From: a virus
DNA: 64,000 nt
Direction: 5' to 3' (one strand)
Virus record (IMG/VR): IMGVR_UViG_3300036851_000218
Location: 1 to 64,000 of that record
Below are positions 1 to 26,601 of the stretch, piece after piece. The translations under genes were made by a program, and so were the position numbers. Positions within the stretch are counted from its first letter, which is position 1; every line of letters begins with the position of its first letter. A model generated the notes under the pieces. That model searched no databases, had not been told where the DNA came from, and was given only the letters and a program-made list of their open reading frames with translations.

Positions 1-269
1 TCTGTGCAGCGGTTGACGGCGAAGAAAGTGGTTGGATGCCAAGTGCGCCATCGATCAGTATTCCGGTAGCCGACTTTCCTCCTGGTGGCTGTTATTACGT
101 CTATTTAAACGATGGTAACGGACGATGGCTAATCACGGATTTGGATCATCCTGACGGCATTGTATTACAGCCGGATAATAACGGCTGGCTGGAACTGATC
201 GGCTCACCTGGGCAGGATGAAACCCCCGATCATTATGAGCCTGTACGGTTTGATTGCGGGGCGGGTTAG
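1..269 (+). CDS. hypothetical protein, 5'-partial
   Basis: The frame of ORF 36-269 stays open to the window edge and ends in TAG just before a promoter. Confidence 0.55.
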   Translation, partial: CAAVDGEESGWMPSAPSISIPVADFPPGGCYYVYLNDGNGRWLITDLDHPDGIVLQPDNNGWLELIGSPGQDETPDHYEPVRFDCGAG

Positions 270-276
270 CAAATTC

Positions 277-305
277 TTGACACCGTTTCGAAGCTGTGGT
301 ACACT
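277..305 (+). promoter_or_regulatory. sigma70-type promoter of the tRNA/ncRNA island
   Basis: TTGACA-17 nt-TACACT with TGTGn extended -10. Confidence 0.8.
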
Positions 306-324
306 GGTTTTTGTCTCAGGGAAA

Positions 325-395
325 CATTCATTCGTCTAGTGTTCTAAGACTACTCACATAACCGAGTAACACAGGTTTAAATCCTGTATGAGTGA
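325..395 (+). tRNA. tRNA-like element (Glu-type D-arm), aberrant anticodon loop
   Basis: Acceptor CATTCAT/ATGAGTG, D-stem GTCT/AGAC, stem TACTC/GAGTA closing the 8-nt loop ACATAACC, T-arm ACAGG-TTTAAAT-CCTGT. Confidence 0.6.
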
Positions 396-432
396 GAACT
401 GACACCTATTTATTGTTATAGTTTTAACAGTA

Positions 433-493
433 GGAATTTCGCTCTCTGTAACGGCTGCTATGGTTGCGTAATGCTCGTAACAGCGGAATTCCA
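433..493 (+). ncRNA. closed-stem structured RNA candidate
   Basis: GGAATTTCGCT pairs with AGCGGAATTCC (11 bp, one G-U); intergenic, just upstream of tRNA-Glu. Confidence 0.45.
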
Positions 494-501
494 CCTTATA
501 T

Positions 502-597
502 GTCCCTGTCGTCTAGTGGCTCAGGACGACACCCTCTCAAGGTGTAGACGTAGATGTTTTTATATGACATCTTTGAGTTCGAATCTCACCAGGGACA
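502..597 (+). tRNA. tRNA-Glu(CTC) with 23-nt hairpin insertion in T-stem
   Basis: GTCCCTG/CAGGGAC acceptor, GTCT/GGAC D-stem, ACACC-CTCTCAA-GGTGT, variable loop AGAC, GT[insert 552-574]GAG-TTCGAAT-CTCAC; CCA not encoded. Confidence 0.9.
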
Positions 598-599
598 CT

Positions 600-681
600 G
601 TTACAGTCAGTTGAATTGGACTCCTTATGTGTAGGTTTGGGGAAACCGACAAATTTAAACTCAATTCACTGGCTGTAACCA
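600..681 (+). ncRNA. long hairpin RNA between the two tRNA-Glu genes
   Basis: GTTACAGTCAG/CTGGCTGTAAC plus TGAATTG/CAATTCA, internal GGTTT-GGGG-AAACC hairpin; fills the whole spacer. Confidence 0.55.
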
Positions 682-682
682 C

Positions 683-778
683 GCCCTTATCGTCTAGTGG
701 CTCAGGACGCTGCCCTCTCAAGGCAGAAACGTAGATGTTTTTATATGACATCTTTGAGTTCGAATCTCACTAAGGGCA
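683..778 (+). tRNA. tRNA-Glu(CTC) with the same 23-nt T-stem insertion
   Basis: GCCCTTA/TAAGGGC acceptor, CTGCC-CTCTCAA-GGCAG, variable loop AAAC, GT[insert 733-755]GAG-TTCGAAT-CTCAC. Confidence 0.9.
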
Positions 779-883
779 TAGGTGATTAATACTCACCGAA
801 ACAGATTTGTCTCCTGTTGGTTTGGTTGCTTGTTGCGTTCGTGTTTGGTTGTACGTCGTGAGTGTGGACGCTAAACATACTCA

Positions 884-954
884 GCCCCTATCGTCTAGCG
901 GCAGGACGGCTATCCCTCAGATAGCAGACATCGGTTCGAATCCGGTTAGGGGCA
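884..954 (+). tRNA. tRNA-Glu(CTC), no insertion, C33 variant
   Basis: GCCCCTA/TAGGGGC, GCTAT-CCCTCAG-ATAGC, AGAC, ATCGG-TTCGAAT-CCGGT. Confidence 0.85.
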
Positions 955-982
955 TGTTTTCAATCAATCTATGGAGGCCGTT

Positions 983-1081
983 ATGTCTGAGGCATTGGCA
1001 ATTCTGTTTTTTATTGTGGTTGTCGGTACTGTGTTTGTGTTCGTTTTCGACCTGCTTTTTCACGGACTGCGGCAAAAGTAG
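983..1081 (+). CDS. small single-TM protein (32 aa), not in ORF track
   Basis: GGAGG RBS; MSEALAILFFIVVVGTVFVFVFDLLFHGLRQK. Confidence 0.6.
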   Translation: MSEALAILFFIVVVGTVFVFVFDLLFHGLRQK

Positions 1082-1103
1082 TTTTTATAGTGGGGTTAGT
1101 AAC

Positions 1104-1553
1104 ATGCCTTTTTGTGTAGGTTGTGGAAATTCATTCCCGAACCGAGTTGTAATCGACAATAAAGTAAAAGTTCTCGGCAGTAGAAAGTATTGTCTCGACT
1201 GTTCTCCTTACAACCTACATAATACAACCAACCCATTAATATCGGACGAAGAAAGATTGAGAATTAAGCGCGAAAAGTCCGTTATTGCTGTTAAAAAGCG
1301 GCGTAAAAAATTAATGGATATGTCACGGGAATACAAAGGTGGATCGTGCCAATTGTGCGGTTATAACCGCTGCACAAGGGCTTTGGAATTCCATCACATA
1401 GACCCCGAAATTAAGAGTTTTTCAATAAGTGGTGAAGGGCATACTCGTTCTTGGAGCGAAATAAGAAATGAACTTGACAAATGTATTCTGTTATGCTCCA
1501 ACTGCCATCGAGAAGTAGAATCGGGATTAATAGTTTTACAAGACGATATATAG
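1104..1553 (+). CDS. HNH endonuclease
   Basis: CQLCG...LEFHHIDP...LLCSNCH; N-terminal CVGC/CLDC; start re-set to ATG 1104 because the longer ORF overlaps a tRNA. Confidence 0.85.
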   Translation: MPFCVGCGNSFPNRVVIDNKVKVLGSRKYCLDCSPYNLHNTTNPLISDEERLRIKREKSVIAVKKRRKKLMDMSREYKGGSCQLCGYNRCTRALEFHHIDPEIKSFSISGEGHTRSWSEIRNELDKCILLCSNCHREVESGLIVLQDDI

Positions 1554-1559
1554 CCGTAT

Positions 1560-1632
1560 AGGACGATAGTTTAACTGGATAAAATGCTCGTCTCCAAAAC
1601 GAGTGATACAGGTTCAAATCCTGAGCGTCCTG
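1560..1632 (+). tRNA. tRNA-Trp(CCA)
   Basis: CTCGT-CTCCAAA-ACGAG anticodon arm, CAGG-TTCAAAT-CCTG; mismatches at 7-66 and 49-65. Confidence 0.8.
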
Positions 1633-1641
1633 ATAGACAAT

Positions 1642-1670
1642 TTGACAGGATAGCGCAATCAGTGTACAAT
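1642..1670 (+). promoter_or_regulatory. sigma70-type promoter
   Basis: TTGACA-17 nt-TACAAT. Confidence 0.8.
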
Positions 1671-1696
1671 GCTCTTGCGTGAAACTCACTTGGAAT

Positions 1697-1750
1697 GGTG
1701 GGGGTGTGCGGTGCGCCACACTAGGCGTATAAATCCCAGGATACCCCACT
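1697..1750 (+). ncRNA. structured RNA candidate
   Basis: GGTGGGG(G)TGT/ATACCCCACT enclosing GTGCGCC-ACACTA-GGCGTAT. Confidence 0.4.
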
Positions 1751-1767
1751 CTGTTAAATTGTCTTAC

Positions 1768-1839
1768 GGGAGTATAGTTTAATTGGCAGAACACTTGCGC
1801 CTGAGCAAGAGGTTGTAGGTTCGAATCCTACTACACCCA
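1768..1839 (+). tRNA. tRNA-like element with 6-nt anticodon loop (undetermined)
   Basis: GGGAGTA/TACACCC (one mismatch), GTTT/GAAC D-stem, CTTGC-GCCTGA-GCAAG, GTAGG-TTCGAAT-CCTAC. Confidence 0.7.
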
Positions 1840-1841
1840 CT

Positions 1842-1915
1842 AAGAGACGGGTCGGAGATAATGGGTTATCTTATGGCTAGAAACTTCCCATATCAAGAAT
1901 TTACCCGTCTCTTTT
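1842..1915 (+). ncRNA. closed-stem hairpin RNA / terminator-like
   Basis: AAGAGACGGGT/ACCCGTCTCTT perfect 11 bp, inner ATGGG/CCCAT, ends in a short T-run. Confidence 0.45.
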
Positions 1916-1938
1916 CATGTTTAATCTAAGGAGATATT

Positions 1939-2358
1939 ATGTACAAATTAGGGGATAAAGTATTATACGTACCCAAAGATTCAGACGAAAATATTCAGTT
2001 GGTGGGTGAAGTGGTCGGCGTGTTAAAAGACCTGCGATACCCGCTATATTTTCTTAGCAGCGACAAACATCCGTATTCGGCTGACGCGCTAACGCCTTTA
2101 CCACAGCATTATGAGTTTTGGATTGAGTTGGATACCGAAAATGCTGAGTTTACGGTAGATCGTATTGACTCGGTTAATCAGGCGATTCGCAGTCGGGCAG
2201 AATATCTTAATTCGTTCAAGATTGTGGATGTTAAACCCGAAATTGTGGTTTCGGTGTATTGGTCAACGATTCCTGGTTCAATCCCTAAACGCAGCGTAAA
2301 AGAATACCTGCGTGACGTTGTGTTATCTGGTTCACGTATATCTGAGAGGACAAATTGA
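1939..2358 (+). CDS. hypothetical protein
   Basis: AAGGAG RBS, 139 aa. Confidence 0.7.
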   Translation: MYKLGDKVLYVPKDSDENIQLVGEVVGVLKDLRYPLYFLSSDKHPYSADALTPLPQHYEFWIELDTENAEFTVDRIDSVNQAIRSRAEYLNSFKIVDVKPEIVVSVYWSTIPGSIPKRSVKEYLRDVVLSGSRISERTN

Positions 2359-2621
2359 TGGATTATCCTAACACTTTACGTATTTTAACGCATACTGCAA
2401 AAACAGCCTTTCATCCGGCGGTAAGCAGTATTTATTTTGAAGATAATATGGGCGCGGTATGGAAAGTGACAATCGACACCCGCTTCAAACGTGTCCCTGT
2501 TCCTAAACTGCGGAATGTCACTAAGCACATGCCGGATAATTGGCGTGATTTAAGTGCTGATGAAATCGATTTGGTTATAGCGCAGAAGTTTTTAGATAGC
2601 TTGCCTGTGCGGGAGGATTAG
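2355..2621 (+). CDS. hypothetical protein
   Basis: Coupled to upstream gene, 88 aa. Confidence 0.65.
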   Translation: MMDYPNTLRILTHTAKTAFHPAVSSIYFEDNMGAVWKVTIDTRFKRVPVPKLRNVTKHMPDNWRDLSADEIDLVIAQKFLDSLPVRED

Positions 2622-2628
2622 CAATTTC

Positions 2629-2657
2629 TTGACATTTTCCGCAGTCAGTGGTAACAT
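2629..2657 (+). promoter_or_regulatory. sigma70-type promoter
   Basis: TTGACA-17 nt-TAACAT, TGn. Confidence 0.7.
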
Positions 2658-2728
2658 GAAACTGTGACATCAATTCAGCAACTTTGCAAAAAAATTTAAG
2701 CGCCACTACCACCGAAAGGTACATCTAT

Positions 2729-3010
2729 ATGAATCTTCTAAGCCTGTTGGAAAAGCTGCATGACGCAGCCATTAGTGTGTTCGAACCTAATATGGTTAAG
2801 GCGAACCTGAATGACAAAGTTCGTCCCGTCCGCTTTACTGTCACCGTCTGGAATGTTCCGCTGCGAAAACTGCAAGATGAAAAATATGTTGCAGATATAG
2901 AGCGCGAGTTTCGAGACGCAATCAAATCACTTGGTCTGGAAATCGTATCTAAAACTGTCGGTTACGACATGAAAATGATGCGGTTTGATATTGTTCTTAA
3001 GCCTGTTTAG
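2729..3010 (+). CDS. hypothetical protein
   Basis: AAGG RBS before ATG 2729. Confidence 0.65.
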   Translation: MNLLSLLEKLHDAAISVFEPNMVKANLNDKVRPVRFTVTVWNVPLRKLQDEKYVADIEREFRDAIKSLGLEIVSKTVGYDMKMMRFDIVLKPV

Positions 3011-3022
3011 TCGGGTTTTTTT
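2999..3022 (+). terminator. intrinsic terminator candidate
   Basis: AAGCCTG/CGGGTTT stem plus T-tract. Confidence 0.45.
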
Positions 3023-3051
3023 CGTTCCCCAAATCTAAGGAGTATAATCTA

Positions 3052-3270
3052 ATGATCGACGTTCTAAATTTCGTAATCCCCGCCGCATTTATCCTGTGGT
3101 TGCTGCTGAACCTGGAAGTAACCGAAGAACTTGTTTACACGCCGCCTTTTACCGACATCGATTTTGACGACGTGGACTGGCAGGTAGACGCTGCCCAACT
3201 CAGCCTTGACATTTTCTTCGATCAGATGTTTAATATCTATGATCGACCCGCACCTGCCGGAGTGTTCTAA
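3052..3270 (+). CDS. small acidic membrane protein
   Basis: AAGGAG RBS, N-terminal hydrophobic helix. Confidence 0.6.
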   Translation: MIDVLNFVIPAAFILWLLLNLEVTEELVYTPPFTDIDFDDVDWQVDAAQLSLDIFFDQMFNIYDRPAPAGVF

Positions 3271-3271
3271 A

Positions 3272-4054
3272 ATGTCATACTCACAACAAACACGCTGCCT
3301 GTTTTGCCAATCTTCTGATGGTTTGACCCCTATATACGCTTGTGTTTTAAGCAACGGGCGAGATACTAGAGGACTTTTTAATTTGTGTTTGTCCTGTCGA
3401 TCAGCTATGCCAGCAGGCTGTATTAACTTCGGCGTATTAAATCCAGCATGTGTGTGTGAGGACGGCGCAGGTTTCCCTAATCAGGACACTTTCGAATTTT
3501 TCAGCAATGTATTACTTCGGCGCAGTGGTGCATCCAGTGACGTGTTATATGATCTGGCTGAAAGCGCCTGTTCTGTAAAAGGTTTGGCTAAAGCCTTCCG
3601 CATCTATTGCACCTATGATTGGCGTATCATGGTGGATGATAGCGCCCCCTACCTGGGAGACAAACCGATATTCTTACACAATGTTGATTACGAGTGGCTA
3701 GCACAGCTTTACTACGTCAATCGAGAGTTAGAATCCGACCAAGTTCGTGTAATCCTTTTTCATCACGAAACTGCACGTGCTTATGCACTCATCTTCTCTA
3801 CTGAGCCGGACGACAAAGTTCAAGATACGATTAAGTTCTTATTTGAAAACTGGTCACACCCGATCATTGTGTTTGACGAAATATGGACAGTTCCGCCTAA
3901 AGAAGTTGAATCCTATCTGCACGAGTTGTACATCATTAAAAACAAGTTGGACGATATTGGCGGCATTTTCAGGGTGTACGGTAAGTATGACAGCCGTGAA
4001 GTGCGGGTGTTACCCAAGAACCGACGGTTGATGTACGAACGAGAGAGGGTGTAA
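3272..4054 (+). CDS. paralog family A member with N-terminal CxxC pairs
   Basis: CLFC/CLSC; AFRIYCTYDW...NVDYEWLA shared with 4054, 8087, 8695, 9465. Confidence 0.7.
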   Translation: MSYSQQTRCLFCQSSDGLTPIYACVLSNGRDTRGLFNLCLSCRSAMPAGCINFGVLNPACVCEDGAGFPNQDTFEFFSNVLLRRSGASSDVLYDLAESACSVKGLAKAFRIYCTYDWRIMVDDSAPYLGDKPIFLHNVDYEWLAQLYYVNRELESDQVRVILFHHETARAYALIFSTEPDDKVQDTIKFLFENWSHPIIVFDEIWTVPPKEVESYLHELYIIKNKLDDIGGIFRVYGKYDSREVRVLPKNRRLMYERERV

Positions 4055-4893
4055 TGAGTCAAGTAAGTCTGAAACCAAACATTTGTTTTATATGTGGCGG
4101 CTCATATGGTTCAATACTGGGGGAACTAAAACGGGATATTTACTTCCGAGAACCTGTTTTTTATGGCGACAATCGAGCTAATCCACGTGGAACAAAAGTC
4201 TGCAATCGTTGCTTCGATCTGGTAGCGCAGTCATGGACACCGATCAAGCCCGATGAAATTGTTATAACGTTAGACGAGTTTCCTGATTTGAACACCTATT
4301 TTGCGCTGCAATCGTTGCTGCGTAAGACTTTTAATCAACCAAACTTGCCTGAATACGTTGCGAAAGCGCAGCAGGCTACTGACCTGGATGACTTTACCCG
4401 CTATTTGAAAATGCAAATCAGCGACGACTGGCATCACACCTACATGGCTGATAGCCGTATTGATATAAAAAGTGTCAATTGGAAGATGCTGGCAACCTGC
4501 CTCTATCGCATCACAGGCAAGCAGTTATACCCCGATGTGGTTAAATTTTACTTGATGATTTCTCAAGTAAATCGTTACGGTTTCAGTGGTAAGTTAACAG
4601 ACCATCCAATTCTGCGAGTGCTTATCACCACCGATAAAGACCACTACGACAATACTGGCGCACAAATTGTAGCCGTTCTTAACACAGTGGTGCTGGAAGA
4701 AACCGAATTGATGGTTTCCCGTAACGATCTTCTAATCGCGGAACAGCAGTTAACTGCCCTGGTACTTGATGAATACCTAGGCACTTATAACTTACAAGTC
4801 TATACTAAAATCGGATGCCGTAGCTTTTCGAATGTGGAACGGGTGTTCCGCTACCCCGATGAAAGCACCCGTAAGTATGACCCCGATTGGTAG
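4054..4893 (+). CDS. paralog family A member with N-terminal CxxC pairs
   Basis: CFIC/CNRC; LKMQISDDW...SVNWKMLA...KIGCR. Confidence 0.7.
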   Translation: MSQVSLKPNICFICGGSYGSILGELKRDIYFREPVFYGDNRANPRGTKVCNRCFDLVAQSWTPIKPDEIVITLDEFPDLNTYFALQSLLRKTFNQPNLPEYVAKAQQATDLDDFTRYLKMQISDDWHHTYMADSRIDIKSVNWKMLATCLYRITGKQLYPDVVKFYLMISQVNRYGFSGKLTDHPILRVLITTDKDHYDNTGAQIVAVLNTVVLEETELMVSRNDLLIAEQQLTALVLDEYLGTYNLQVYTKIGCRSFSNVERVFRYPDESTRKYDPDW

Positions 4894-4915
4894 TATTAAT
4901 CTATAATAAACCCCC

Positions 4916-4944
4916 TTGACACCGTTTTCGTCCTGTGCTACACT
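4916..4944 (+). promoter_or_regulatory. sigma70-type promoter
   Basis: TTGACA-17 nt-TACACT, TGTGn; spacer resembles that at 277. Confidence 0.8.
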
Positions 4945-4992
4945 GTTGTCAGTTGGTTTCTCGTCAATCAATACTAAGGAGTTTGCTCTACC

Positions 4993-6306
4993 ATGCCATT
5001 AGTTCTCACTGATAAAATTGTTTACAATCAGCGTTTTCAAGTGTCCACCGACCCAAATGCGATCAGCGATTCCGGCGTTAGTGAAGTTGAAAATTATATC
5101 AAGGGTGTCAGCTTACGTAACCCCGACTGGCGTATGCTGCTGCCACCTGATTATGATCCTTACGATTATAAGAAGGATCGTTTGCCCCAACTACCGGATG
5201 ATTGGGAGTGGACGGCAAAATCAGACGGTAAAAAAGTATTATCCGACGGGAATAAATACTCAGGCCGTTTCACCCGCCGCTATTCGCAGTTCGTGTACAA
5301 GACTACCAAAATCTCTGTGCCTGTAGACTGGCTGGAAAAGATGGGTAATATCGTGGCTTCGCATTCAGAAAAGAATGCAGGTTATTCCATCGATTTCACC
5401 AAAGATTTACACTCGTGGAGGGCGGGGGAGTTTGGGGACGGCGGTTCGTGTTTCTGGCAGAGCCGCGCTAGCGCCCGTGATGTCATGAAAAAACATGATT
5501 GCTTCGCTATTCGGTTCTATATGGGTAACGATCCGGTTAACAAAGTATCTTACGAACGAGGGACAGCCCGTGCCTGGGTTGTACCGAATGTACCGGAGCA
5601 AGGTATGCTGACAGTCTTTAATGGTTACGGGTTTGCTGGTGATCCGACCCGTGTTATTGTTCGGGTGTTAGTGCAGCATTTAGAAAACACCCTGAACATG
5701 AAGAATGCAATCCACTACCGCGAAGTCCGACTGCTTAATAACAATTCAGCCGATGGCAATCTGTACATCAACGGTAGCCGCGCCTTTATTGTGGGTGAGG
5801 CCGAAGTCTGCAAGAAATATACCGAAATTGACTTGAAGTGGAAAGATAACGTCCTGTGCCAGTGTTACGAATGCAATGACAGCATCTATGAAGGTGATGA
5901 TTACCACGAACACAACGGGCGTTATTACTGTGACGATTGTTTCCATGACAACTTCTCAAGCTGCCAACACTGCGACACCTACGTGCCTCAAGAGGACATC
6001 AATGAGTTGACTGTCCAAACCGCTGACGGAACGGATACACAATACCTGTGTGACCGATGCTATGACAACGTATCTGTGACGTGTGGACACTGCGGCGACG
6101 TGGTGCATGAAGATGATGCAATTTATCTGGACGGTGAAACTGAATACGTCTGTGAACAGTGTTACGAAGAAGAGACATCCAGTTGCACCAACTGTAATAA
6201 TCTGTTCTATACACACAATCTAACCGAACACGGCGAAGATGAGCATGGCGACACAATTATACATTGTGCCGTATGTGCTGCCGATCTAGTAGAAGAGGCG
6301 GTATAA
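4993..6306 (+). CDS. multi-zinc-finger protein with N-terminal SC-motif (possibly PcfJ-like) domain
   Basis: Eight CxxC pairs at the C-terminus; GDGGSCFW...GTARAWV in the N-terminal domain. Confidence 0.65.
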   Translation: MPLVLTDKIVYNQRFQVSTDPNAISDSGVSEVENYIKGVSLRNPDWRMLLPPDYDPYDYKKDRLPQLPDDWEWTAKSDGKKVLSDGNKYSGRFTRRYSQFVYKTTKISVPVDWLEKMGNIVASHSEKNAGYSIDFTKDLHSWRAGEFGDGGSCFWQSRASARDVMKKHDCFAIRFYMGNDPVNKVSYERGTARAWVVPNVPEQGMLTVFNGYGFAGDPTRVIVRVLVQHLENTLNMKNAIHYREVRLLNNNSADGNLYINGSRAFIVGEAEVCKKYTEIDLKWKDNVLCQCYECNDSIYEGDDYHEHNGRYYCDDCFHDNFSSCQHCDTYVPQEDINELTVQTADGTDTQYLCDRCYDNVSVTCGHCGDVVHEDDAIYLDGETEYVCEQCYEEETSSCTNCNNLFYTHNLTEHGEDEHGDTIIHCAVCAADLVEEAV

Positions 6307-6308
6307 CG

Positions 6309-8087
6309 ATGAAGAAAATTAAAATCAACGAAGAACAATTACGCGCTCGGTGTTTGCAACCGGAGACGGAGTTCTTTGAACTTGGTGAAGTTGTAACCAC
6401 TCAGGGACGCGGTGTGAATGCCCAGGAATCATTCTATATCTATAAAGATAATGGAGCGAAAGTCCTGGCAGTGGCGCATCTGGACTCAGTTATTATGCCC
6501 GATGAAAACTGGACATTCGAACGGGCGCGGTTAGGCCGCAACGGAGCGAAGCAAAACTATATCTGGAATCCGCAGTTAGATGATCGTCTAGGTGTGTACA
6601 TCATTCTGGATTTGCTGCCATCATTAATCGGTGAAGATCAGTACGATATTCTGCTGACCACCGACGAAGAAATTGGCGCAACTACGGCTGAAAACTTTGT
6701 AGCGCCAGCGGGTAAACAGTATAATTGGATTTTCCAATTTGACCGACGCGGCACAGGTGTAGTGCTTTATAATTATCAAGGCGGTGATTGGACACCCGCT
6801 GTCAGTGAATTTTTAACTGTCCAGCAAGGTTCGTTCTCGGACATTTCACGGCTGGAACACCTGGGTTGTAAGGCTATGAACGTTGGCACAGGCTACCACG
6901 ATGAACACCGTGATATGTGTTATATGATCGTAGAAGAAACCGAAGCCCAAGTCCGTAAGTTTCTGCGGTTCTATTACACCTATCGGGATGTGCATTTCCC
7001 GCACACAAAGGTTGTTACCCGTTACGGTGGCTACAGCCGATGGGACGATGAGGTTTACGAGAATGATTGGGTAAAAAATTATGGCACAGGCGGTTCAGGT
7101 TGGTGGGATGCATCTACTAATACGTGGCAGACAGGTACAAAACCCTCTTCCGGTACGATTAATGCCGACACTATCAGGGGGAAATACCTGACCAACAACA
7201 GCGCCAAGCTGACCCCATCTGAGTGGGTTAAACGACCCGACGTAACCGTTTTCACGATGAAACTGGACGGTCACGACCATAAGATTAAAATGTATAGTGA
7301 TCCGATCACAGGCCGACAGGCAATACACTGCGAGTCCTGCGGTGAAATCGAGCCTGTCGAGTCGATGTACTGGACAAAGCTAGAAGGTTTCCCTGTTTGC
7401 GAATCGTGCTACAATCTGAATAAAATGCCTGAGTTAAAGGCAGCGGATTTTTTGGAACTGAGGAATGAGTGGGGTGCAATCGAAGAGGACGGTACACAGT
7501 GGCATACACCAGACCGTCTGGTTTGGATTGCAGAAGGCGGATGGATCAGGAAATCCGGTTATAGCTGGATCAGGATCACGCCCCGTTGGGATCAGTTATA
7601 CGGTTGCCCCACAGGTTCAGTACCTAAAGCGGTTAGCTGCTCCCGTTGTCAGCAACCTGAATGGCAAGATGCGGCTGTTTTAAAGAAAGGCGCAGGACGT
7701 AAAGGACAGGATGTTTATTACTGCCGTTGGTGTGATGCCCATACTGGCGGCGATACAACCGAAGATGAAGAGGACGATACCGCTTACGGTTATGCTGATG
7801 ATGACGGTATGCGCCAACCCGACTATGCAGGTATCCTTGAGAAAGCTGGACGGGTCTACGATGATACATTAAATAGCCTGGATAACATTTTGTTGCTGCC
7901 TGCTGCTGGTGATACTCAGGAGATGGAAGGAATTGATTTGCAAGAAGATAGTTACGGCATGATGGATAACACCTGGGATCAGGATTGGCACTATACTGTA
8001 ACCGAAGATGGTCGTTCGTTTTGGGTACGTAATGGTCAATACATTCCGGTAGTGAATGACCCAACCGACGGGGAAGGCGCTGTATAA
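6309..8087 (+). CDS. M28/M20-like zinc metallopeptidase with C-terminal Zn fingers
   Basis: AHLDSV, LDDRLG, DEEIG, FDRRG, SFSDI, GYHDEH ligand motifs; CESC/CESC, CSRC/CRWC. Confidence 0.8.
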   Translation: MKKIKINEEQLRARCLQPETEFFELGEVVTTQGRGVNAQESFYIYKDNGAKVLAVAHLDSVIMPDENWTFERARLGRNGAKQNYIWNPQLDDRLGVYIILDLLPSLIGEDQYDILLTTDEEIGATTAENFVAPAGKQYNWIFQFDRRGTGVVLYNYQGGDWTPAVSEFLTVQQGSFSDISRLEHLGCKAMNVGTGYHDEHRDMCYMIVEETEAQVRKFLRFYYTYRDVHFPHTKVVTRYGGYSRWDDEVYENDWVKNYGTGGSGWWDASTNTWQTGTKPSSGTINADTIRGKYLTNNSAKLTPSEWVKRPDVTVFTMKLDGHDHKIKMYSDPITGRQAIHCESCGEIEPVESMYWTKLEGFPVCESCYNLNKMPELKAADFLELRNEWGAIEEDGTQWHTPDRLVWIAEGGWIRKSGYSWIRITPRWDQLYGCPTGSVPKAVSCSRCQQPEWQDAAVLKKGAGRKGQDVYYCRWCDAHTGGDTTEDEEDDTAYGYADDDGMRQPDYAGILEKAGRVYDDTLNSLDNILLLPAAGDTQEMEGIDLQEDSYGMMDNTWDQDWHYTVTEDGRSFWVRNGQYIPVVNDPTDGEGAV

Positions 8088-14337: not shown

Positions 14338-14914
14338 ATTAATGAACGTAGGCGAAATTCGGTTAGTAGATGATAGCATAGGAAGGCTTATCAAATTAAC
14401 TGACACCACTGCAATTTTCCTTTGTCTCTCTTTCCCCTACTTCCGATCCATGCGCCTCAGTGACGCTGATAAATGTAAAAAGTTATCAGCGTCACTTGGA
14501 GATTTCCAGCAGTTATTAGACCTCCCCGCTAACAATGCCTGGACACTCACCGCATGGCGGGGAGAGTTAAAACGTTTGACGCAAGCTGCCATAGAAGAGT
14601 ATGAAGATAGTCTGGAAGATTTAGACGACGACGGAGAAACCAGTTTTGCGAGAATGGATTTACTATTGAAGAAAATTATTAAGCAGCAGATAGATGAATC
14701 AGATTGGTTAACTGATCCGGTGGGTCAGGAAAAAGTAATCCAATATTCTATTAACTATTTAGATGTTACACCCGACTTGATTTATAAGTTTGTCAAAGAT
14801 ACAGACCGCCATCGATGGCAGTCAATTAAAAAAGCATCAGCCACCGCACATCTGATGATTGATGTTTACCAGTCAGCTAAACTTAAATTAAAGAACAGCT
14901 TATCTGACTATTAG
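14324..14914 (+). CDS. hypothetical protein
   Basis: ORF track, 196 aa. Confidence 0.6.
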   Translation: MEYFKLMNVGEIRLVDDSIGRLIKLTDTTAIFLCLSFPYFRSMRLSDADKCKKLSASLGDFQQLLDLPANNAWTLTAWRGELKRLTQAAIEEYEDSLEDLDDDGETSFARMDLLLKKIIKQQIDESDWLTDPVGQEKVIQYSINYLDVTPDLIYKFVKDTDRHRWQSIKKASATAHLMIDVYQSAKLKLKNSLSDY

Positions 14915-15009
14915 GAATAGTATTACTTCCTTACATAATGCTTGAAAGTGGTCTTGACTTTTTGGTACTGAAAAACATAATATATAATTATGGTTTTGGA
15001 GACCATAAG

Positions 15010-15033
15010 TTAATAGAACAATTAATAGAACAA
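15010..15033. repeat. tandem direct repeat TTAATAGAACAA x2 in AT-rich intergenic gap
   Basis: Exact 12-nt duplication next to the inverted repeat at 14988-15008. Confidence 0.7.
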
Positions 15034-15090
15034 CACTTAGTTTAGGTCTTACCTGCTTAGCTTTAACATGACCCCCGCGAGGTACATATA

Positions 15091-15369
15091 ATGGACATAC
15101 ATAAGTTTAACAGATTAGAAAAATTGCCATACAGCCCTCTTATTGGATGTGAGACTGAATCAACTAACGGGTGGCACAGATTTGATGCTACTAAAATATT
15201 TTATTATAAGAACGGGTACGTGTTAGGTGTCATCTGGTTGTGGGCGTGGAAAAATAAAGATAGAAAATTTCATGGTTGCATCTATGATATAGAAACACAT
15301 AGACCAATTCACAGCTTTAAATTCAAATACCTACGAACGCTTATGCGATATATAAAACGACTATGTTAG
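15091..15369 (+). CDS. hypothetical protein
   Basis: GAGG RBS. Confidence 0.55.
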   Translation: MDIHKFNRLEKLPYSPLIGCETESTNGWHRFDATKIFYYKNGYVLGVIWLWAWKNKDRKFHGCIYDIETHRPIHSFKFKYLRTLMRYIKRLC

Positions 15370-15734
15370 ATGTATATATTGTACCTGAGTGGCATTTGCT
15401 CGATGACGACGCTAAGAACTATCTGATAGAAAAAGCATTGACAAAATTTTCAAAGTGGTGTACGATGGATTATGAAGCAGGGTACTACTCTGCTCGACAA
15501 CAGTTGGTAGACCACATCGTTGAAACAGACTTTATCCAAGTACAGGCAACTAATGTCTTATCTTATTGGGTTGACTATATGAACACCCTGAAAATAGATT
15601 TATCGGATAATAGTAAAATACGTAGTTTGTGGTACGAAGTGGTTTACTTACTGACCGACCACCATTGGGAGAAAGGGTTGCACCATTTGGTGCGCCGTAT
15701 TATGATTGAAAATTATGCATTACAAATTGGCTGA
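15363..15734 (+). CDS. hypothetical protein
   Basis: Coupled ORF. Confidence 0.6.
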   Translation: MLDVYIVPEWHLLDDDAKNYLIEKALTKFSKWCTMDYEAGYYSARQQLVDHIVETDFIQVQATNVLSYWVDYMNTLKIDLSDNSKIRSLWYEVVYLLTDHHWEKGLHHLVRRIMIENYALQIG

Positions 15735-15966
15735 GTATGAAATAAAACATCTGTTCAGACTTATAGTGGAATTAGATGACTTAGAAAAACATTGGTATGA
15801 ATTAAGCCAAGCAACCTATGGCTTCTCACTCCACCTTGACGCTGTAGAACGACAAATTCAGGACAAAGAACAAACAATACTTGATACTATCCGCGCATTT
15901 AAGTACGTCAATGAGTATCCAGAAGAGGTTAAAAATTACAACAAAGTGGCTCAACCGGAGTGTTAA
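15706..15966 (+). CDS. hypothetical protein
   Basis: Coupled ORF, start uncertain. Confidence 0.55.
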   Translation: MKIMHYKLAEYEIKHLFRLIVELDDLEKHWYELSQATYGFSLHLDAVERQIQDKEQTILDTIRAFKYVNEYPEEVKNYNKVAQPEC

Positions 15967-16174
15967 AGAGGTACACGCTTTAATAAAACAAAACAAACGT
16001 CTAGCGTGTCGAATACATATTGATGGTAAAGACCGTACCGTAATGTTTATCCGCAAAGTTGGCAACAGCTTTGAAGTTACCTATCAGAACAGCGACCTCA
16101 TAGGGGGAACGTCCAAAGATACTGAGATGATCGTATTACACCCATCCGATAATGTTCAAATCAATTTATTATAG
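15911..16174 (+). CDS. hypothetical protein
   Basis: ORF, start uncertain. Confidence 0.5.
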   Translation: MSIQKRLKITTKWLNRSVKEVHALIKQNKRLACRIHIDGKDRTVMFIRKVGNSFEVTYQNSDLIGGTSKDTEMIVLHPSDNVQINLL

Positions 16175-16183
16175 GAGTTTAGA

Positions 16184-16402
16184 ATGACACTACTTGCACG
16201 TGGACGCGGAGATGTTTTGGCTTACTGGCCTACCAGGGGAGAACGTATGATTGAGGTACTTGCTGCCACATCTGACTCACCTCGTTCTGTGTGGATTAAC
16301 CCACTCTGTACCCGCAAAGCACCGAACTTTGAATTGGCGCTACAAGAGGCAAAGGAGCTAGTCAACCAACAAACGGTATATTCAAAATTGCACTTGAAAT
16401 AA
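16184..16402 (+). CDS. hypothetical protein
   Basis: AGGAG RBS. Confidence 0.6.
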   Translation: MTLLARGRGDVLAYWPTRGERMIEVLAATSDSPRSVWINPLCTRKAPNFELALQEAKELVNQQTVYSKLHLK

Positions 16403-16422
16403 TTTTCAACCTGTGGTAAGAT
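16394..16422 (+). promoter_or_regulatory. sigma70-type promoter
   Basis: TTGAAA-17 nt-TAAGAT, TGTGn. Confidence 0.65.
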
Positions 16423-16455
16423 ACAAATTCAAACTATTCAATCTATGGAGAAAAA

Positions 16456-17715
16456 ATGACTACTAACGACCTAGTACATACACCTGATTATTTGATCGAC
16501 ATGCTGGAAACCGAAGCACAGACCGGATCAACCGATCTGTTCCGCAGCGACGACAGCGAACGACTTCCACCAATGCGCCGTATTGAATTCCCGCAGCAGA
16601 ACTCCCGTAAGCACGGTGGGCAAGCGGGTAAGATTTTTATCAGCGGCTTGACGGCTGACCAGGAAGGCGAATACGTAGATTACATCGACCTGCTGTTGGT
16701 TGATCCGCTGGTTATCGGACGTGATGATGCTACCGACTGGATGCAAAAAGACGGCAACATCATGAACCACATGCCTTACGGCGGACGTACTATGTGGGAA
16801 TTTGATGAACAAGGCAAGCGTGTCAGTTCATCCGAAGCACCTGTATGTTCGTCCAATAATGGGCTTGAACCCTGGCGGCAGTATCGTGACAAAGAATATT
16901 TTGACTACCGCACGAAAGAAACTCACCGAATTGGCTGGACGAAAGATGAAGCAGGCGCACCCGTACCAATGCCAAATGCTTGCGTCGGTTGCCCCTTTGC
17001 TCAGGATGTGACTGTACCTGTGGGTGTTGATGCCGAAGGTAAGCCCGTCACCAAATGGTTCAGTTCGATGTGCCGTGAAAGCTATACCTACGTGGTATGG
17101 GATGTGGATCGCAAAGAACTGATGACTTTGAAAGCAGTCAACCTGGGTATGCAATTCGCTCTGACTGGTCGCCGCAACAAAGCTGGACGGCGTTATGATG
17201 GTGAAGAATTTAAAGGAATCCGCCATTACTTCTCACACCTGGGTGGCTTCTGGACTAGCCCTGATACGGGTAAACGTTATCCTACATTCAGCAACCGTCC
17301 ACAAGGTAAGCCCTCAGTGGATAATCCAAATGCTCCCGTCCATCCGGTTCGTATGACTGTGACTTTGAACAACTTTGACCCTAACACCTACGTGCCTAAC
17401 TTCACCGTTCTGGACGGCAAAGGCAACAAGATGATCCTGGGTGTCAATCCTAAAAAGGGCATGGTTGATGGTTCGGTTATGATTGAGGGGGGTGAACGCA
17501 CGATGACACCCGAAGAGTATGTCGCCTATCTGAAAGACCAACAGATGTTCATTCAGGACGACATGAAAAATCGTATGATGGCTATGTATCTGGTTACTCG
17601 TACTGATGTTCCCGCAACTTTCGAACGACAGTTACCGGCTGGTGCAGCCGAAGGCGCTCAACTGCCTGCCACTACACCTGCGGATACAACGGCTGATTAC
17701 GACAATCCGTTTTAA
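16456..17715 (+). CDS. putative ssDNA-binding protein
   Basis: Acidic C-terminal tip DYDNPF; CSSNNG...CVGCP...C; own promoter and terminator; heads the replication module. Confidence 0.55.
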   Translation: MTTNDLVHTPDYLIDMLETEAQTGSTDLFRSDDSERLPPMRRIEFPQQNSRKHGGQAGKIFISGLTADQEGEYVDYIDLLLVDPLVIGRDDATDWMQKDGNIMNHMPYGGRTMWEFDEQGKRVSSSEAPVCSSNNGLEPWRQYRDKEYFDYRTKETHRIGWTKDEAGAPVPMPNACVGCPFAQDVTVPVGVDAEGKPVTKWFSSMCRESYTYVVWDVDRKELMTLKAVNLGMQFALTGRRNKAGRRYDGEEFKGIRHYFSHLGGFWTSPDTGKRYPTFSNRPQGKPSVDNPNAPVHPVRMTVTLNNFDPNTYVPNFTVLDGKGNKMILGVNPKKGMVDGSVMIEGGERTMTPEEYVAYLKDQQMFIQDDMKNRMMAMYLVTRTDVPATFERQLPAGAAEGAQLPATTPADTTADYDNPF

Positions 17716-17720
17716 TAATT

Positions 17721-17750
17721 AGAGGGGGCGTAATTGCCCCCGTCTCTTTT
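17721..17750 (+). terminator. intrinsic terminator
   Basis: AGAGGGGGCG-TAAT-TGCCCCCGTCT-CTTTT. Confidence 0.7.
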
Positions 17751-17763
17751 AATAGGAGGAGCT

Positions 17764-18066
17764 ATGCTGCATGTAATAGCTTTACTCATATCTTTACGCA
17801 TCCTATTTCGGTTTCATTTCCGCCGACTTACGGGGAATACATCTAGCTGGACTACAGCGGTGGTGGCTGACCAACTAAACGAACAGGCAGCTAAACTACA
17901 ACATCATTCTCCTTATTCTACTATCCGGCGTTTAATATATTATTGGATCATATGGAACTCTCGCGTCGTTCACCCCACCCTTGAAGGTTGGAACACTGCA
18001 CAGTGGGTGTTTTGGGCGAACAAATGGTATGCGGAGGTTAAAGCAAATAACAGGGTGGGTTTATGA
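17764..18066 (+). CDS. hypothetical membrane protein
   Basis: GGAGGA RBS; hydrophobic N-terminus. Confidence 0.55.
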   Translation: MLHVIALLISLRILFRFHFRRLTGNTSSWTTAVVADQLNEQAAKLQHHSPYSTIRRLIYYWIIWNSRVVHPTLEGWNTAQWVFWANKWYAEVKANNRVGL

Positions 18067-18557
18067 TTACGATTAATACAATGTTGTCCGGCTCACCTTT
18101 ACACGGGGCGGTGACGATAAACGTATTTGGTGACTTTTATGTAGATGATGAAATTAATTTTTACGCAAACTTAACAGGTTCTAATGTAACCTGGGTAGAC
18201 AGTGAAGTTTATACTGGCTGTGAACTGAGTTCTGATTTTAAATTTCGGGACGGTGAATGGCTGTTAGACGAACTTGGTATCTTTGTTCCATCCACTAACG
18301 ACAGGGCGGCATGGAGTCGTCGGATCGACACCCAAGTTATCCGTGATGAGGATATATCAAAGCAAGATCAACGTATAGTCGAACACCTGCTTAAAAGTAT
18401 CCGTTCAGCAGGAAGACCGGAAACCTTAAAAAAGTTACGAGATGGGGTTATCAAAGATCGCGTGGATGTTTACGCTAGCCGAATCATCACTCTCGAAAAT
18501 GAAATATCAGCGTTAGCACGTAAGCTGACACGGTATCAGGATATGCTTCATGGTTAG
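18063..18557 (+). CDS. hypothetical protein
   Basis: ATGA overlap. Confidence 0.65.
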   Translation: MITINTMLSGSPLHGAVTINVFGDFYVDDEINFYANLTGSNVTWVDSEVYTGCELSSDFKFRDGEWLLDELGIFVPSTNDRAAWSRRIDTQVIRDEDISKQDQRIVEHLLKSIRSAGRPETLKKLRDGVIKDRVDVYASRIITLENEISALARKLTRYQDMLHG

Positions 18558-19245
18558 TAATAATATTGCTCAAATAATCCACATACCAGGAGGTCGAGTT
18601 GCAGCCAATCCGTTTGATTTTTATGACACGCCCAGGCATTTCATATCGGCTGTTCTCGACATACTACCAAGCAGCTTCTCGCCAACGAAGATACTCGATC
18701 CAGGCGCGGGTGGCGGTGGATGGGGATACATGGCGCGTTATAAATGGCCTGCGTCACACATCGAAGGCATTGAAATCCGAGAAGATGTGGTTGCACCACC
18801 GACGGGTATCTACGACGTTTGGCGCACGATGGATTTCCGCCAATACGTTCCTGATTCGTCGTTCGATCTCGTAGTCGGCAACCCGCCCTACAGTATCGTG
18901 GACGGTAAGCGGGATAACCTACTTGCAGAAAAGTTTATACGGACTGGTTTAGAAGCGGTTCGGGAAAATGGATTGGTATTCTACCTGCTTAAGACGGTGT
19001 TTCTGGAAGGTTCGGGGCGTGGATTAGGTTTATTCACTGAGATGCCACCCAACTATATGTTCCAGTCTATCAGCCGTATCCCGTTCCGTCCTGACTTGGG
19101 TAACAAAACAAATGCGGTTGCCTACTGCATGATGCTGTGGCAAAAGGGCAACGTAGCGTCGGAAACAAAAATTAGATGGTTTGATTGGCGGTTGGGTGGT
19201 AAGCTAGAGTATGTACGGGACTACCCTGCCTTAGAATTAAAGTAG
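18550..19245 (+). CDS. DNA amino (N6-adenine) methyltransferase
   Basis: DFYDTP, ILDPGAGGG SAM motif, VVGNPPY catalytic motif. Confidence 0.85.
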   Translation: MVSNNIAQIIHIPGGRVAANPFDFYDTPRHFISAVLDILPSSFSPTKILDPGAGGGGWGYMARYKWPASHIEGIEIREDVVAPPTGIYDVWRTMDFRQYVPDSSFDLVVGNPPYSIVDGKRDNLLAEKFIRTGLEAVRENGLVFYLLKTVFLEGSGRGLGLFTEMPPNYMFQSISRIPFRPDLGNKTNAVAYCMMLWQKGNVASETKIRWFDWRLGGKLEYVRDYPALELK

Positions 19246-25890: not shown

Positions 25891-26601
25891 ATGAGGTATC
25901 TCGGCGGAAAAAGTCGTTTATCTGGTAGGATTGTGGAACAGCTTGAAAAGCTACGACATCCTAACCAGATATATTTTGAACCCTTTGTAGGCTCGGCGGC
26001 TGTCGTATCTAAAATGGGCGGAATCAGGATAGCTTCGGATATCAATTCAGACTTAATTAGTTTATGGAGAGCCAATCAGACGGGCTATGAATTTCCTGAA
26101 TGCGTAACTAAAGACGAGTACGACAAAGTTAGGAGCAACCCCTCCGTGTTGGACGATACACCCCATCTACGGGCGTTTTACGGAATCTGTTGTTCATTCG
26201 GGGGTAAGTGGTTCGGCGGGTACGCACAAGGGGGCGGGAGGAATTTTGCAGACGAAGCCAAACGCGGTTTGCAGAGAATTAAAACTGAGATTCAAGATGT
26301 GGCGTTCTTATCTAAGGCTTATGATGCGTTCGCACCAAAAGGGATGCTTATCTACTGCGACCCGCCTTATGCCAACACAACTAAATATGATTTTGCGAAA
26401 GACTTTGACACTTGCAAGTTCTGGAAAACCATGTTAGAGTGGTCAAAAGATAACGTCGTGGTTGTGTCAGAGTACACCTGCCCATTACCCGATACGGAGG
26501 TGCTGGCGGAGTGGGAGACTAAAACGACTGTTTCAAAGAGTCTAAACCTAAATAGCCACCGGATAGATAAACTATTCTTAATAAGGTACATCAATGATTA
26601 A
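25891..26601 (+). CDS. Dam-like D12-class N6-adenine methyltransferase
   Basis: RYLGGKSR, FEPFVGS, YCDPPY. Confidence 0.9.
   Translation: MRYLGGKSRLSGRIVEQLEKLRHPNQIYFEPFVGSAAVVSKMGGIRIASDINSDLISLWRANQTGYEFPECVTKDEYDKVRSNPSVLDDTPHLRAFYGICCSFGGKWFGGYAQGGGRNFADEAKRGLQRIKTEIQDVAFLSKAYDAFAPKGMLIYCDPPYANTTKYDFAKDFDTCKFWKTMLEWSKDNVVVVSEYTCPLPDTEVLAEWETKTTVSKSLNLNSHRIDKLFLIRYIND

Follow-up and report, generated by a model that had tools for sequence, protein, structure and literature searches.

An identical hairpin at the variable-loop/T-stem border of two phage tRNA-Glu(CUC) genes

Described tRNAs with added elements

Few shapes in biology are conserved as strongly as that of transfer RNA (tRNA), in which the acceptor and T stems form a helix of 12 base pairs (bp) that EF-Tu, RNase P and the CCA-adding enzyme all read. 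Two tRNA-Glu(CUC) genes of a phage that depart from this shape are described here. They lie in the first 64,000 nucleotides (nt; hereafter the window) of the IMG/VR virus record IMGVR_UViG_3300036851_000218, and each carries the same 23-nt hairpin-forming insert at the border of the variable loop (V-loop) and the T stem. The two genes are designated t1 and t2, and an insert-free tRNA-Glu(CUC) gene downstream of them is designated t3.

Several groups of tRNAs with long or additional arms bear comparison with t1 and t2. The class II tRNAs (Leu, Ser, Tyr, Sec) resemble them in that Rfam aligns the insert in the variable region and that the arm of the minimum-energy fold lies in the central junction; unlike class II tRNAs, t1 and t2 are of the Glu type and retain a 4-nt class-I variable loop ahead of the arm. 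The nematode nev-tRNAs are also armed class-I tRNAs, and they are charged according to their arm (with Leu) in the account available from the source (PMC4033280), which is not indicated for t1 and t2. In a natural selC* tRNA-Cys, the T stem bulges at 51a (PMC7609411, in the available part), and one section heading of a related paper reads ‘selC* tRNACys functions in translation’ (PMC5389517). In this tRNA and in the minor 8/4 tRNA-Sec, as far as the accessible portions of these papers go, the 5' strand of the T stem is interrupted around position 51, as it would be in t1 and t2 if the arm splits the T stem; however, a single base interrupts the 8/4 tRNA there, whereas a 23-nt hairpin does so in the 7/5 tRNAs t1 and t2.

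Engineered tRNAs with an aptamer hairpin on the variable arm (V-arm) remain translationally active, so that an added hairpin is tolerated and can act as a protein handle, a ‘pseudo-anticodon’ (PMC7590224, in the portion available). Those molecules differ from t1 and t2 in being synthetic, in being built on a 9/3 allo-tRNA chassis and in having the hairpin at the tip of an existing V-arm. Likewise, the phage tRNAs that escape host defences (PMC10264068, PMC11464382, PMC11555353) are isoacceptors deviating from the host form, as are t1 to t3, here three of them for one minor codon; in the available text of these papers the deviation lies in the anticodon loop or in the choice of tRNA, and no extra arm is mentioned. 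A literature search whose reach excluded most subscription journals yielded no description of a hairpin at the V-loop/T-stem border or of long-armed class-I tRNAs of phages.

Two tRNA-Glu genes with the same inserted hairpin

A first-pass annotation, drawn from the sequence letters, had described two tRNA-Glu(CTC) genes with an identical 23-nt insert and a third copy lacking it, and gene-calling programs bear this out. ARAGORN calls all three genes (Table 1), and t1 and t2 both score well above the gathering score of 29 bits for the Rfam tRNA family RF00005. The insert forms a stem of 7 bp closed by a 7-nt loop, and RNAfold gives both copies a cloverleaf with this arm, at z = -2.3 and -2.8. 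When t3 is aligned with MAFFT, a gap of 23 columns appears in it at the place of the insert. The window has exactly two occurrences of the 21-nt arm, as has the whole 81,401-base record, and none of 100 shuffles gives two or more. Even at up to three mismatches it is found only twice in the genome, for which reason a repeated mobile palindrome was dropped as a candidate.

The two copies differ at 13 of 96 positions, and 12 of these differences make up six compensatory pairs, namely 2:71, 5:68 and 7:66 within the acceptor stem, together with 27:43, 28:42 and 29:41 in the anticodon stem. The thirteenth lies in the variable loop, and none falls within the insert. The tracts 8-27, 31-41 and 47-88 are identical between t1 and t2, the last of them holding the insert and most of the T arm; both the compensatory nature of the stem changes and the likeness of insert and T arm had been noted from the letters. 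All stem pairs are standard, 28 of 28 being intact in each copy. Among four paralogues, 96.8% of the cells pair as against 79.6% in shuffles (0 of 500 as high) and 30-49% with slid partners, and 13 of the 28 pairs change on both sides (again 0 of 500 shuffles as high). The earlier picture of a five-armed RNA on an otherwise complete tRNA-Glu-type cloverleaf, with its stems kept by compensatory change, is thus upheld. The direct repeat formed by t1 and t2 ends exactly at the tRNA borders, the spacers are without detectable likeness, and no CCA is encoded at the 3' end of either gene.

The first-pass annotation had also allowed that the duplicated segment might be an assembly artefact. Logan contigs, which come from an independent assembly of the probable source soil run, tile positions 250-2000 with zero differences. 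One contig (250-577) joins the 5' sequence specific to copy 1 to an insert, another (560-758) runs from insert through spacer to insert, and a third (741-2000) leads from an insert to the 3' sequence specific to copy 2, so that each insert is linked to copy-specific flanks and no variant, indel or joint appears. An artefact of one assembler is therefore excluded, although the support is not independent, because the sample is the same. The word depth in Logan is 30x at 548-589, the 42-nt segment common to t1 and t2, 15x at 560-758 and 9x in the flanks; this unevenness across 548-758 may reflect a tandem unit that varies in copy number or the presence of a second strain.

Position of the arm

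The insert had been placed inside the T stem, and this stands as one of two readings. The flanking GT and GAG do rebuild GTGAG opposite CTCAC, a T stem of 5 bp, with a boundary of the insert that is ambiguous by one T. By nearest-neighbour energy, however, an arm at the junction with a 4-bp T stem reaches -29.5 kcal/mol, as against -24.2 to -25.1 kcal/mol for the forms with a split T stem. This minimum-energy fold (model A) has six bases before the arm, one after it and base 65 unpaired. In the Rfam alignment, too, the insert falls into the variable region, and the one non-standard pair is a U-C mismatch at 49:65. The 4-nt loop AGAC/AAAC, described at the outset as a normal variable loop, is of the normal Glu type with A46 and C48 kept, and this speaks for the split-stem reading.

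Both placements were kept as readings, because multiloop energies are crude and tertiary contacts are ignored in them. The continuous 12-bp acceptor/T stack that tRNA-handling proteins expect would argue for the split-stem form. In either form, the arm departs from the body 1-2 pairs beyond the position of the class-II variable arm.

Other identities were considered for the element and rejected. A class II tRNA in the strict sense has its long arm immediately behind bases 44-45 in place of the short variable loop, with 1-2 bases and a 5-bp T stem after it, which is not the arrangement of t1 and t2 (six bases before and one after, and a T stem of 4 bp or split), and the anticodon CTC is not one of Leu, Ser, Tyr or Sec. 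An 8/4 or 9/3 allo-tRNA (PMC5389517) was set aside as base 8 (T) faces base 65 (C), which leaves no eighth pair and an acceptor stem of 7 bp. An intrinsic terminator inside the tRNA was likewise discarded, the stem being weak and AU-rich and absent from the list of the terminator scan.

Identity elements and the EF-Tu site

The identity set of E. coli glutamyl-tRNA synthetase (GluRS) includes G1-C72, U2-A71, U11-A24, U13-G22 with A46, the absence of residue 47, U34, U35, C36 and A37, according to the part of the source available (PMC9976931). The identity elements had been taken to be intact in t1 and t2. This is correct for G1-C72 (in both copies), U11-A24, U13-G22, A46, U35, C36 and A37, but not for position 34, where C34 replaces U34 in the anticodon loop CTCTCAA; the genes encode a CUC isoacceptor, and the E. 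coli rule may not fit the host. The pair U2-A71 is present in t1 only, t2 having C2-G71 instead; this pair and G1-C72 count as weak determinants. Residue 47 is absent only when the arm is placed past the 4-nt loop (models B and C), and not in model A.

The T-stem pairs 49:65, 50:64 and 51:63 had been named as the contact site of EF-Tu, and they are indeed in print as setting EF-Tu affinity (PMC11231383, in its accessible portion). The arm stands at or next to these three pairs.

Proposed explanation and its alternatives

The insert has changed at 0 of 23 bases between t1 and t2, whereas 12 of the 24 bases in the acceptor and anticodon stems have changed (Fisher p = 8e-5); counted as pairs, the figures are 0 of 7 in the arm and 6 of 12 in those stems (p = 0.04). 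That the arm sequence stayed fixed while the neighbouring stems turned over argues for constraint, as for the D and T loops.

The explanation preferred here is that t1 and t2 are working, arm-retaining tRNA-Glu(CUC) isodecoders in which the hairpin is a displaced variable arm, a reading that is given a probability somewhat short of one half (about 0.45). It is favoured because both genes have full cloverleaves above the Rfam threshold, intact stems, compensatory pairs, a frozen insert and a rebuilt 5-bp T stem. In origin, an ordinary class-I tRNA-Glu(CUC) gene would have received a near-palindromic 23-nt insertion where its T stem begins, after base 49 or 50, and the gene would then have been duplicated, or the segment copied between copies. 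The 4-nt loop AGAC/AAAC would still build the Glu-type core for GluRS, and the arm, leaving the body 1-2 bp past the class-II arm site, would serve as a variable arm in displaced position. Transcription would be early and start from the sigma-70-type promoter at the head of the operon, after which the tRNAs would be excised from a polycistronic precursor, receive CCA from the host, be charged with Glu and read GAG. As for the benefit, the best guess is that the arm alters the shape of the phage tRNA-Glu such that a host factor acting on tRNA-Glu fails, a counterpart to the changes of the anticodon loop that have been proposed for other phage tRNAs.

A number of points weigh against this explanation. 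C34 stands in place of U34, a strong determinant in E. coli. The arm is at or beside the three pairs that set EF-Tu affinity in the available part of the source (PMC11231383), and 49:65 is lost in the minimum-energy fold; either of these T-stem features could impair delivery to the ribosome. All seven pairs of the arm helix are invariant, so that it has no covariation (n = 2 identical copies), and no arm-bearing homologue was found. The identity of the two arms could come from gene conversion between tandem copies instead of selection. The irregular tRNAs throughout the operon also fit a decaying cluster. Moreover, the stretch is present in one DNA run only and in no RNA run listed. Codon supply offers little help: among 76 phage ORFs (open reading frames) there are 959 GAA and 355 GAG codons, GAG thus making up 27% of the Glu codons (28% in the nearest relative, described below), and since GAG is minor, three CUC genes that read GAG only are not explained by codon supply alone.

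The gene conversion just mentioned belongs to a different account, in which a palindromic insertion of the template-switch type was merely tolerated, is neutral or mildly harmful and has been kept alike by conversion, the genes perhaps drifting towards pseudogenes. The insert is a near-perfect inverted repeat and a singleton, absent from the nearest relative and from all collections scanned; other tRNAs of the operon look defective as well (an 8-nt loop in the tRNA-like gene t0, a 6-nt loop in the gene at 1768-1840, mismatches in tRNA-Trp); and the depth of 30x at the shared 42 nt against 9x suggests that copy number may vary. Against this account, conversion would need three identical tracts (8-27, 31-41 and 47-88) interleaved with stems that changed by compensation only, 28 of 28 pairs are intact in both copies, and the spacers have no likeness. 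This account is considered unlikely, though not negligibly so.

Rather than being a neutral addition or a mere shape change, the hairpin might be a sequence-specific handle that makes of t1 and t2 a phage-private tRNA-Glu, charged normally and then distinguished from the host tRNA-Glu. It would either be protected from a host effector that disables tRNA-Glu or be removed from the EF-Tu pool to a phage protein. This is suggested because the insert is frozen beside replaced pairs, sits on the face that determines EF-Tu affinity and leaves the GluRS core untouched, and it is held to be rather unlikely. In a sub-variant, the 7-nt loop (U, U, UAU, A, U), which has the outline of an anticodon loop, could be readable by an enzyme that acts on anticodon arms. 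Anticodon mimicry was not adopted as an explanation in itself: the outline Y32-U33...R37 fits, but an AU-rich 7-nt loop often does so by chance.

Another alternative is a shield or decoy serving mainly in a conflict with the host: an arm that guards the phage tRNA-Glu against cutting or modification by a host nuclease or toxin that targets tRNAs, or an RNA that soaks up such a factor, with decoding secondary or lost. All three tRNA-Glu(CUC) genes depart from the canonical form, two by the arm and t3 by C33 and a possible sixth stem pair; all three anticodon stems differ, the genes serve a minor Glu codon and the arm is frozen in sequence. Published phage tRNAs include some that neutralise tRNA-cutting defences or escape them (PMC10264068, PMC11464382, PMC11555353, PMC13056530). 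However, the accessible parts of these papers show no defence that targets tRNA-Glu(CUC) or reads the T-stem/variable region, and the escapes published there all concern the anticodon loop or anticodon arm. The shield or decoy is held to be about as doubtful as the sequence-specific handle.

A further proposal made from the letters was that of a non-ribosomal Glu donor, in which the arm keeps Glu-tRNA off EF-Tu for the use of a phage enzyme that takes aminoacyl-tRNA. The place of the arm at or beside the EF-Tu determinants 49:65 to 51:63 (PMC11231383, available part), the intact GluRS elements of the tRNA body and the minor codon agree with it. Its enzyme, on the other hand, is missing from the families found. 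Pfam, run on 40 phage ORFs (39 of them distinct, with 32442-33614 scanned in both Pfam and PHROGs), gave no aminoacyl-tRNA-using, tRNA-repair or synthetase family, RNA ligase, Fem/L-F-type transferase or LanB, many ORFs matching nothing; the domains found were HNH, ClpP, two DNA methylases, Mom, PAS, SH3 and sigma-70 region 4. Similarly, PHROGs, run on 10 ORFs (6 of them in no other library), gave no tRNA-handling family but replication proteins and a phosphoesterase only. The two large neighbouring ORFs returned nothing below E = 0.07 in sequence searches of the PDB, and the corresponding gene pair lies far from the tRNAs in the nearest relative. Such a donor is held to be improbable.

The bulge-helix-bulge motif consists of two 3-nt bulges around a helix. 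The arm is an uninterrupted 7-bp helix without such bulges, and the features of the phage are bacterial, so an archaeal or eukaryal protein-spliced intron was rejected. A group I intron was rejected as well, the insert being only 23 nt long and located at the T stem and the Rfam scan of 1-6000 listing no intron family; group I introns in bacterial tRNAs have a catalytic core of ~100 nt and are usually found in the anticodon loop (PMC4033280, in the part available). The first-pass annotation had suggested a novel mini-intron, whose 23 nt would be excised and the halves joined into a standard 73-nt tRNA-Glu. By reading, a canonical class-I tRNA-Glu does remain without the 23 nt. Yet short introns need an archaeal or eukaryotic splicing endonuclease, and group I introns are the only ones assigned to bacterial tRNAs in the accessible portion of that source (PMC4033280). 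In addition to the plain 7-bp helix, the phage looks bacterial (sigma-70-type promoters, Dam, ClpP, SH3 domains), and the ORFs scanned with Pfam and PHROGs include no RNA ligase, RtcB or kinase-phosphatase family. The mini-intron is accordingly regarded as very improbable.

Searches for a second case and relatives of the phage

The first-pass annotation had looked to homologs with a paired insert as a check, and none was found in IMG/VR, the JGI metagenomes, GTDB or the GenBank phages by exact scans, pattern scans and BLAST. In IMG/VR, the exact 40-nt sequence of insert and T arm gave 0 matches. A pattern from D arm to T loop with a normal gap gave 15 matches, all spanning 50-52 nt, which is the ordinary length. 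The long-gap pattern gave 16, none alike: 15 have extra bases in the anticodon arm or replacing it, and in the match L023 a second T-arm copy comes after a normal tRNA. In the JGI metagenomes, a pattern with an intact Glu anticodon arm and 14-44 extra bases before the T loop gave 11 matches, none alike, 6 of them with class-II-type arms and 5 with a normal tRNA followed by a second T-loop word. The same pattern in GTDB genomes (one per species) gave 2 matches, both artefacts. Among GenBank phages, megablast of 1-6000 gave no match, and blastn of t1 matched 32 records, of which 0 cover the insert. Hence the position of the arm at the V-loop/T-stem border was not seen in any other sequence searched.

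Some of the loci retrieved are of note in their own right. Five of them in IMG/VR (L018, L020, L026, L027 and L028; giant phages of 355-371 kb, and one of 8 kb) hold tRNA-Glu-like genes with normal acceptor, D and T arms in which a conserved segment of ~60 nt replaces the anticodon arm, and which are not called by ARAGORN. At two other loci (L039:2234-2308 and L043:1552-1623), a tRNA-Glu is directly followed by a second copy of the T arm and the 3' acceptor strand, a pattern that fits the trace of an element integrated into a tRNA gene.

The phage itself has few close relatives. When ORF 4993-6306 and the DNA polymerase were each scanned as single proteins against IMG/VR, no relative came up. 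Among 5.8 billion proteins, only 2 are relatives of ORF 4993-6306, their contigs being 2.6 and 3.6 kb long, and 11 are relatives of the DNA polymerase, three of which (P0006, P0009 and P0012) are on Logan contigs of 60-82 kb. Of these three, P0006 is 49% identical and lies on a contig of 81.7 kb, P0009 is 42% identical on one of 60 kb, and P0012 is 30% identical on one of 81 kb. The polymerase is at most 23-31% identical to the polymerases of named phages. An alignment of 9 polymerase relatives led to 8 IMG/VR loci, and tRNAs were present in 2 of the 5 records searched.

The nearest relative (G001) is an 82.5-kb genome with direct terminal repeats, whose polymerase is 42% identical and which has 32 of 76 ORFs in common at 27-59% identity. 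It encodes a tRNA-Thr, a tRNA-Ala and a 74-nt tRNA-Glu(CUC) without the insert, in a cluster at a different place of the genome map. The latter has the anticodon loop of t1 and an anticodon stem one pair off that of t1. The isoacceptor is therefore a trait of the clade and the arm derived in the lineage of the phage studied here, as this tRNA-Glu(CUC) is armless. The gene in question (72063-72135; L059:1500-1573) has the T loop TGCAACT, with G at U55, and a D loop without the usual GG, so that the tRNA-Glu of the clade is unusual at the elbow too. The gene pair 4993-8087 (ORFs 4993 and 6264; 437 and 607 amino acids, of no family) is kept in the relative at 14844-18205 with 29-31% identity. There it is ~53 kb from the tRNAs, and this speaks against a functional link of the pair with the tRNAs.

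Extra arms in phage-like tRNA arrays

Class-I tRNAs with extra arms did come up in the metagenome scan, at another position. Six tRNA-Glu(UUC) genes have an arm of 4-6 bp at the classical class-II position, and these arms covary between loci; for example, that of L040 has a 5-bp stem with a GAAA loop, and that of L042 a 6-bp stem with an AAA loop. The genes sit in dense arrays of 3-19 tRNAs per locus (L035-L037 and L040-L042, from JGI and other metagenomes), on contigs that are phage-like by their PHROG matches, one of them with an HNH gene between tRNAs. In the same arrays, tRNAs of 85-90 nt for Lys, Gln, Met, Cys, Gly, Asp and Asn have short extra hairpins, and many of the armed tRNAs have an encoded CCA.

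ARAGORN made 228 tRNA calls on the window and the loci, a sample biased by the search patterns for the loci, which required the T-loop word to be intact. Forty-two of the calls are at least 82 nt long, and 24 of these have an identity other than Leu, Ser, Tyr or Sec. A hairpin starting 0-2 nt past the anticodon stem is seen in the minimum-energy folds of 17 of these 24 long class-I tRNAs, and 2-7 nt separate it from a T stem of 5-6 bp (4 bp in one). An arm with six bases ahead of it, one behind it and a T stem of 4 bp is confined to t1 and t2 among the 24. The array tRNAs thus resemble t1 and t2 in having a long arm on amino acids normally without one, but in all 17 the arm replaces the variable loop, while t1 and t2 keep the loop and have the arm shifted to the T-stem position. 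The loop of the arm has 7 nt in t1 and t2 and mostly 3-5 nt in the arrays (7 nt in one), and there is no detectable homology between the arms.

Class-II-type arms on Glu, Gln, Lys, Met, Cys, Gly, Asp and Asn tRNAs thus look common in phage-like arrays, and the arm of t1 and t2 would be a positional variant, so far a singleton, of an apparently common phage phenomenon. If the arm is retained and the tRNA works, it measures the tolerance of the acceptor/T surface and marks a natural site for tagging tRNAs. If it is adaptive, the changes that phage tRNAs undergo in conflict with the host extend from the anticodon loop to the shape of the body. If the hairpin is a handle, a functional arm within the T stem would be present in a natural tRNA for the first time; if it is a mutation that was merely tolerated, these genes are a curiosity.

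The tRNA operon and the genome

The record of 81,401 bases is rated 99% complete, and the window has a GC content of 44.8%. The phage is probably of soil origin, as judged by the one sequencing run that contains the stretch. A compact tRNA operon spans 277-1913 (Table 1), and the 17.4 kb of the record beyond the window hold zero additional tRNAs. Irregularity of some kind is found in every tRNA of the operon.

Table 1. Features of the tRNA operon in the window
Feature	Position	Strand	Basis and remarks
Sigma-70-type promoter-like site heading the operon	277-305	+	TTGACA, 17 nt, TACACT, TG ahead of second hexamer; 10/12 consensus, a match only
t0, degenerate hybrid tRNA-like gene	325-395	+	Glu-type D arm, 8-nt anticodon loop, 2-nt variable region; read by eye
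Rod-like spacer hairpin 5' of t1	433-490	+	Fold of 411-501: -28.1 kcal/mol, z = -3.4
t1, tRNA-Glu(CUC) copy 1, arm-bearing	502-598	+	ARAGORN; Rfam 49.5 bits; RNAfold
23-nt insert of t1	552-574	+	552-558 pairs with 566-572, loop 559-565, tail TT 573-574
Rod-like spacer hairpin between t1 and t2	600-679	+	-31.1 kcal/mol, z = -5.15, 0/200 shuffles as stable
t2, tRNA-Glu(CUC) copy 2, arm-bearing	683-778	+	ARAGORN; Rfam 51.1 bits; RNAfold
23-nt insert of t2	733-755	+	Identical to the t1 insert
t3, tRNA-Glu(CUC) copy 3, insert-free	884-954	+	ARAGORN; Rfam 53.1 bits; anticodon loop CCCTCAG, C33
Hydrophobic ORF, 32 codons	between t3 and HNH gene
HNH endonuclease gene within the operon	1104-1553	+	PF01844, E = 1.6e-5, 25.4 bits, over cut-off
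tRNA-Trp(CCA)	1559-1633	+	ARAGORN; Rfam 52.2 bits; non-standard pairs/mismatches at acceptor/T stem junction
Second promoter-like site	1642-1670	+	TTGACA, 17 nt, TACAAT; 11/12 consensus
tRNA with 6-nt anticodon loop	1768-1840	+	ARAGORN, 2-base anticodon ‘ct’; Rfam 58.2 bits
Long perfect-stemmed hairpin followed by T run	1842-1913	+	11-nt arms, 100% complementary

The first tRNA-like gene, t0, is called neither by ARAGORN nor by Rfam. Its 5' half resembles the tRNA-Glu genes, sharing TCGTCTAGTG with t1 to t3, and its 3' half is 85% identical to bases 1597-1623 of tRNA-Trp; its acceptor stem pairs in the alignment. By its sequence, t0 looks like a recombinant or a decaying hybrid. In t3, C32 can pair with G38, and RNAfold gives a 6-bp anticodon stem with a 5-nt loop. 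The tRNA at 1768-1840 has the anticodon loop GCCTGA and an A-A mismatch at 4:69. The two spacer hairpins have ~20 bp each and the common motif CTGTAAC/GTTACAG, and may be processing sites of the precursor that are specific for double strands. The hairpin and T run at 1842-1913 are probably the end of the operon, though the hairpin is not among the sites of a simple terminator scan.

Elsewhere in the genome, ORF 31537-32442 matches the Mom family PF25680 (E = 4e-10), which hints at DNA base modification; two methylase genes, a Dam-type one at 25891-26601 and a second at 18550-19245, accompany it. A 269-amino-acid protein of the lysis region, encoded on the minus strand at 66015-66824 of the record, has a PAS domain (PF13426, E = 1e-7).

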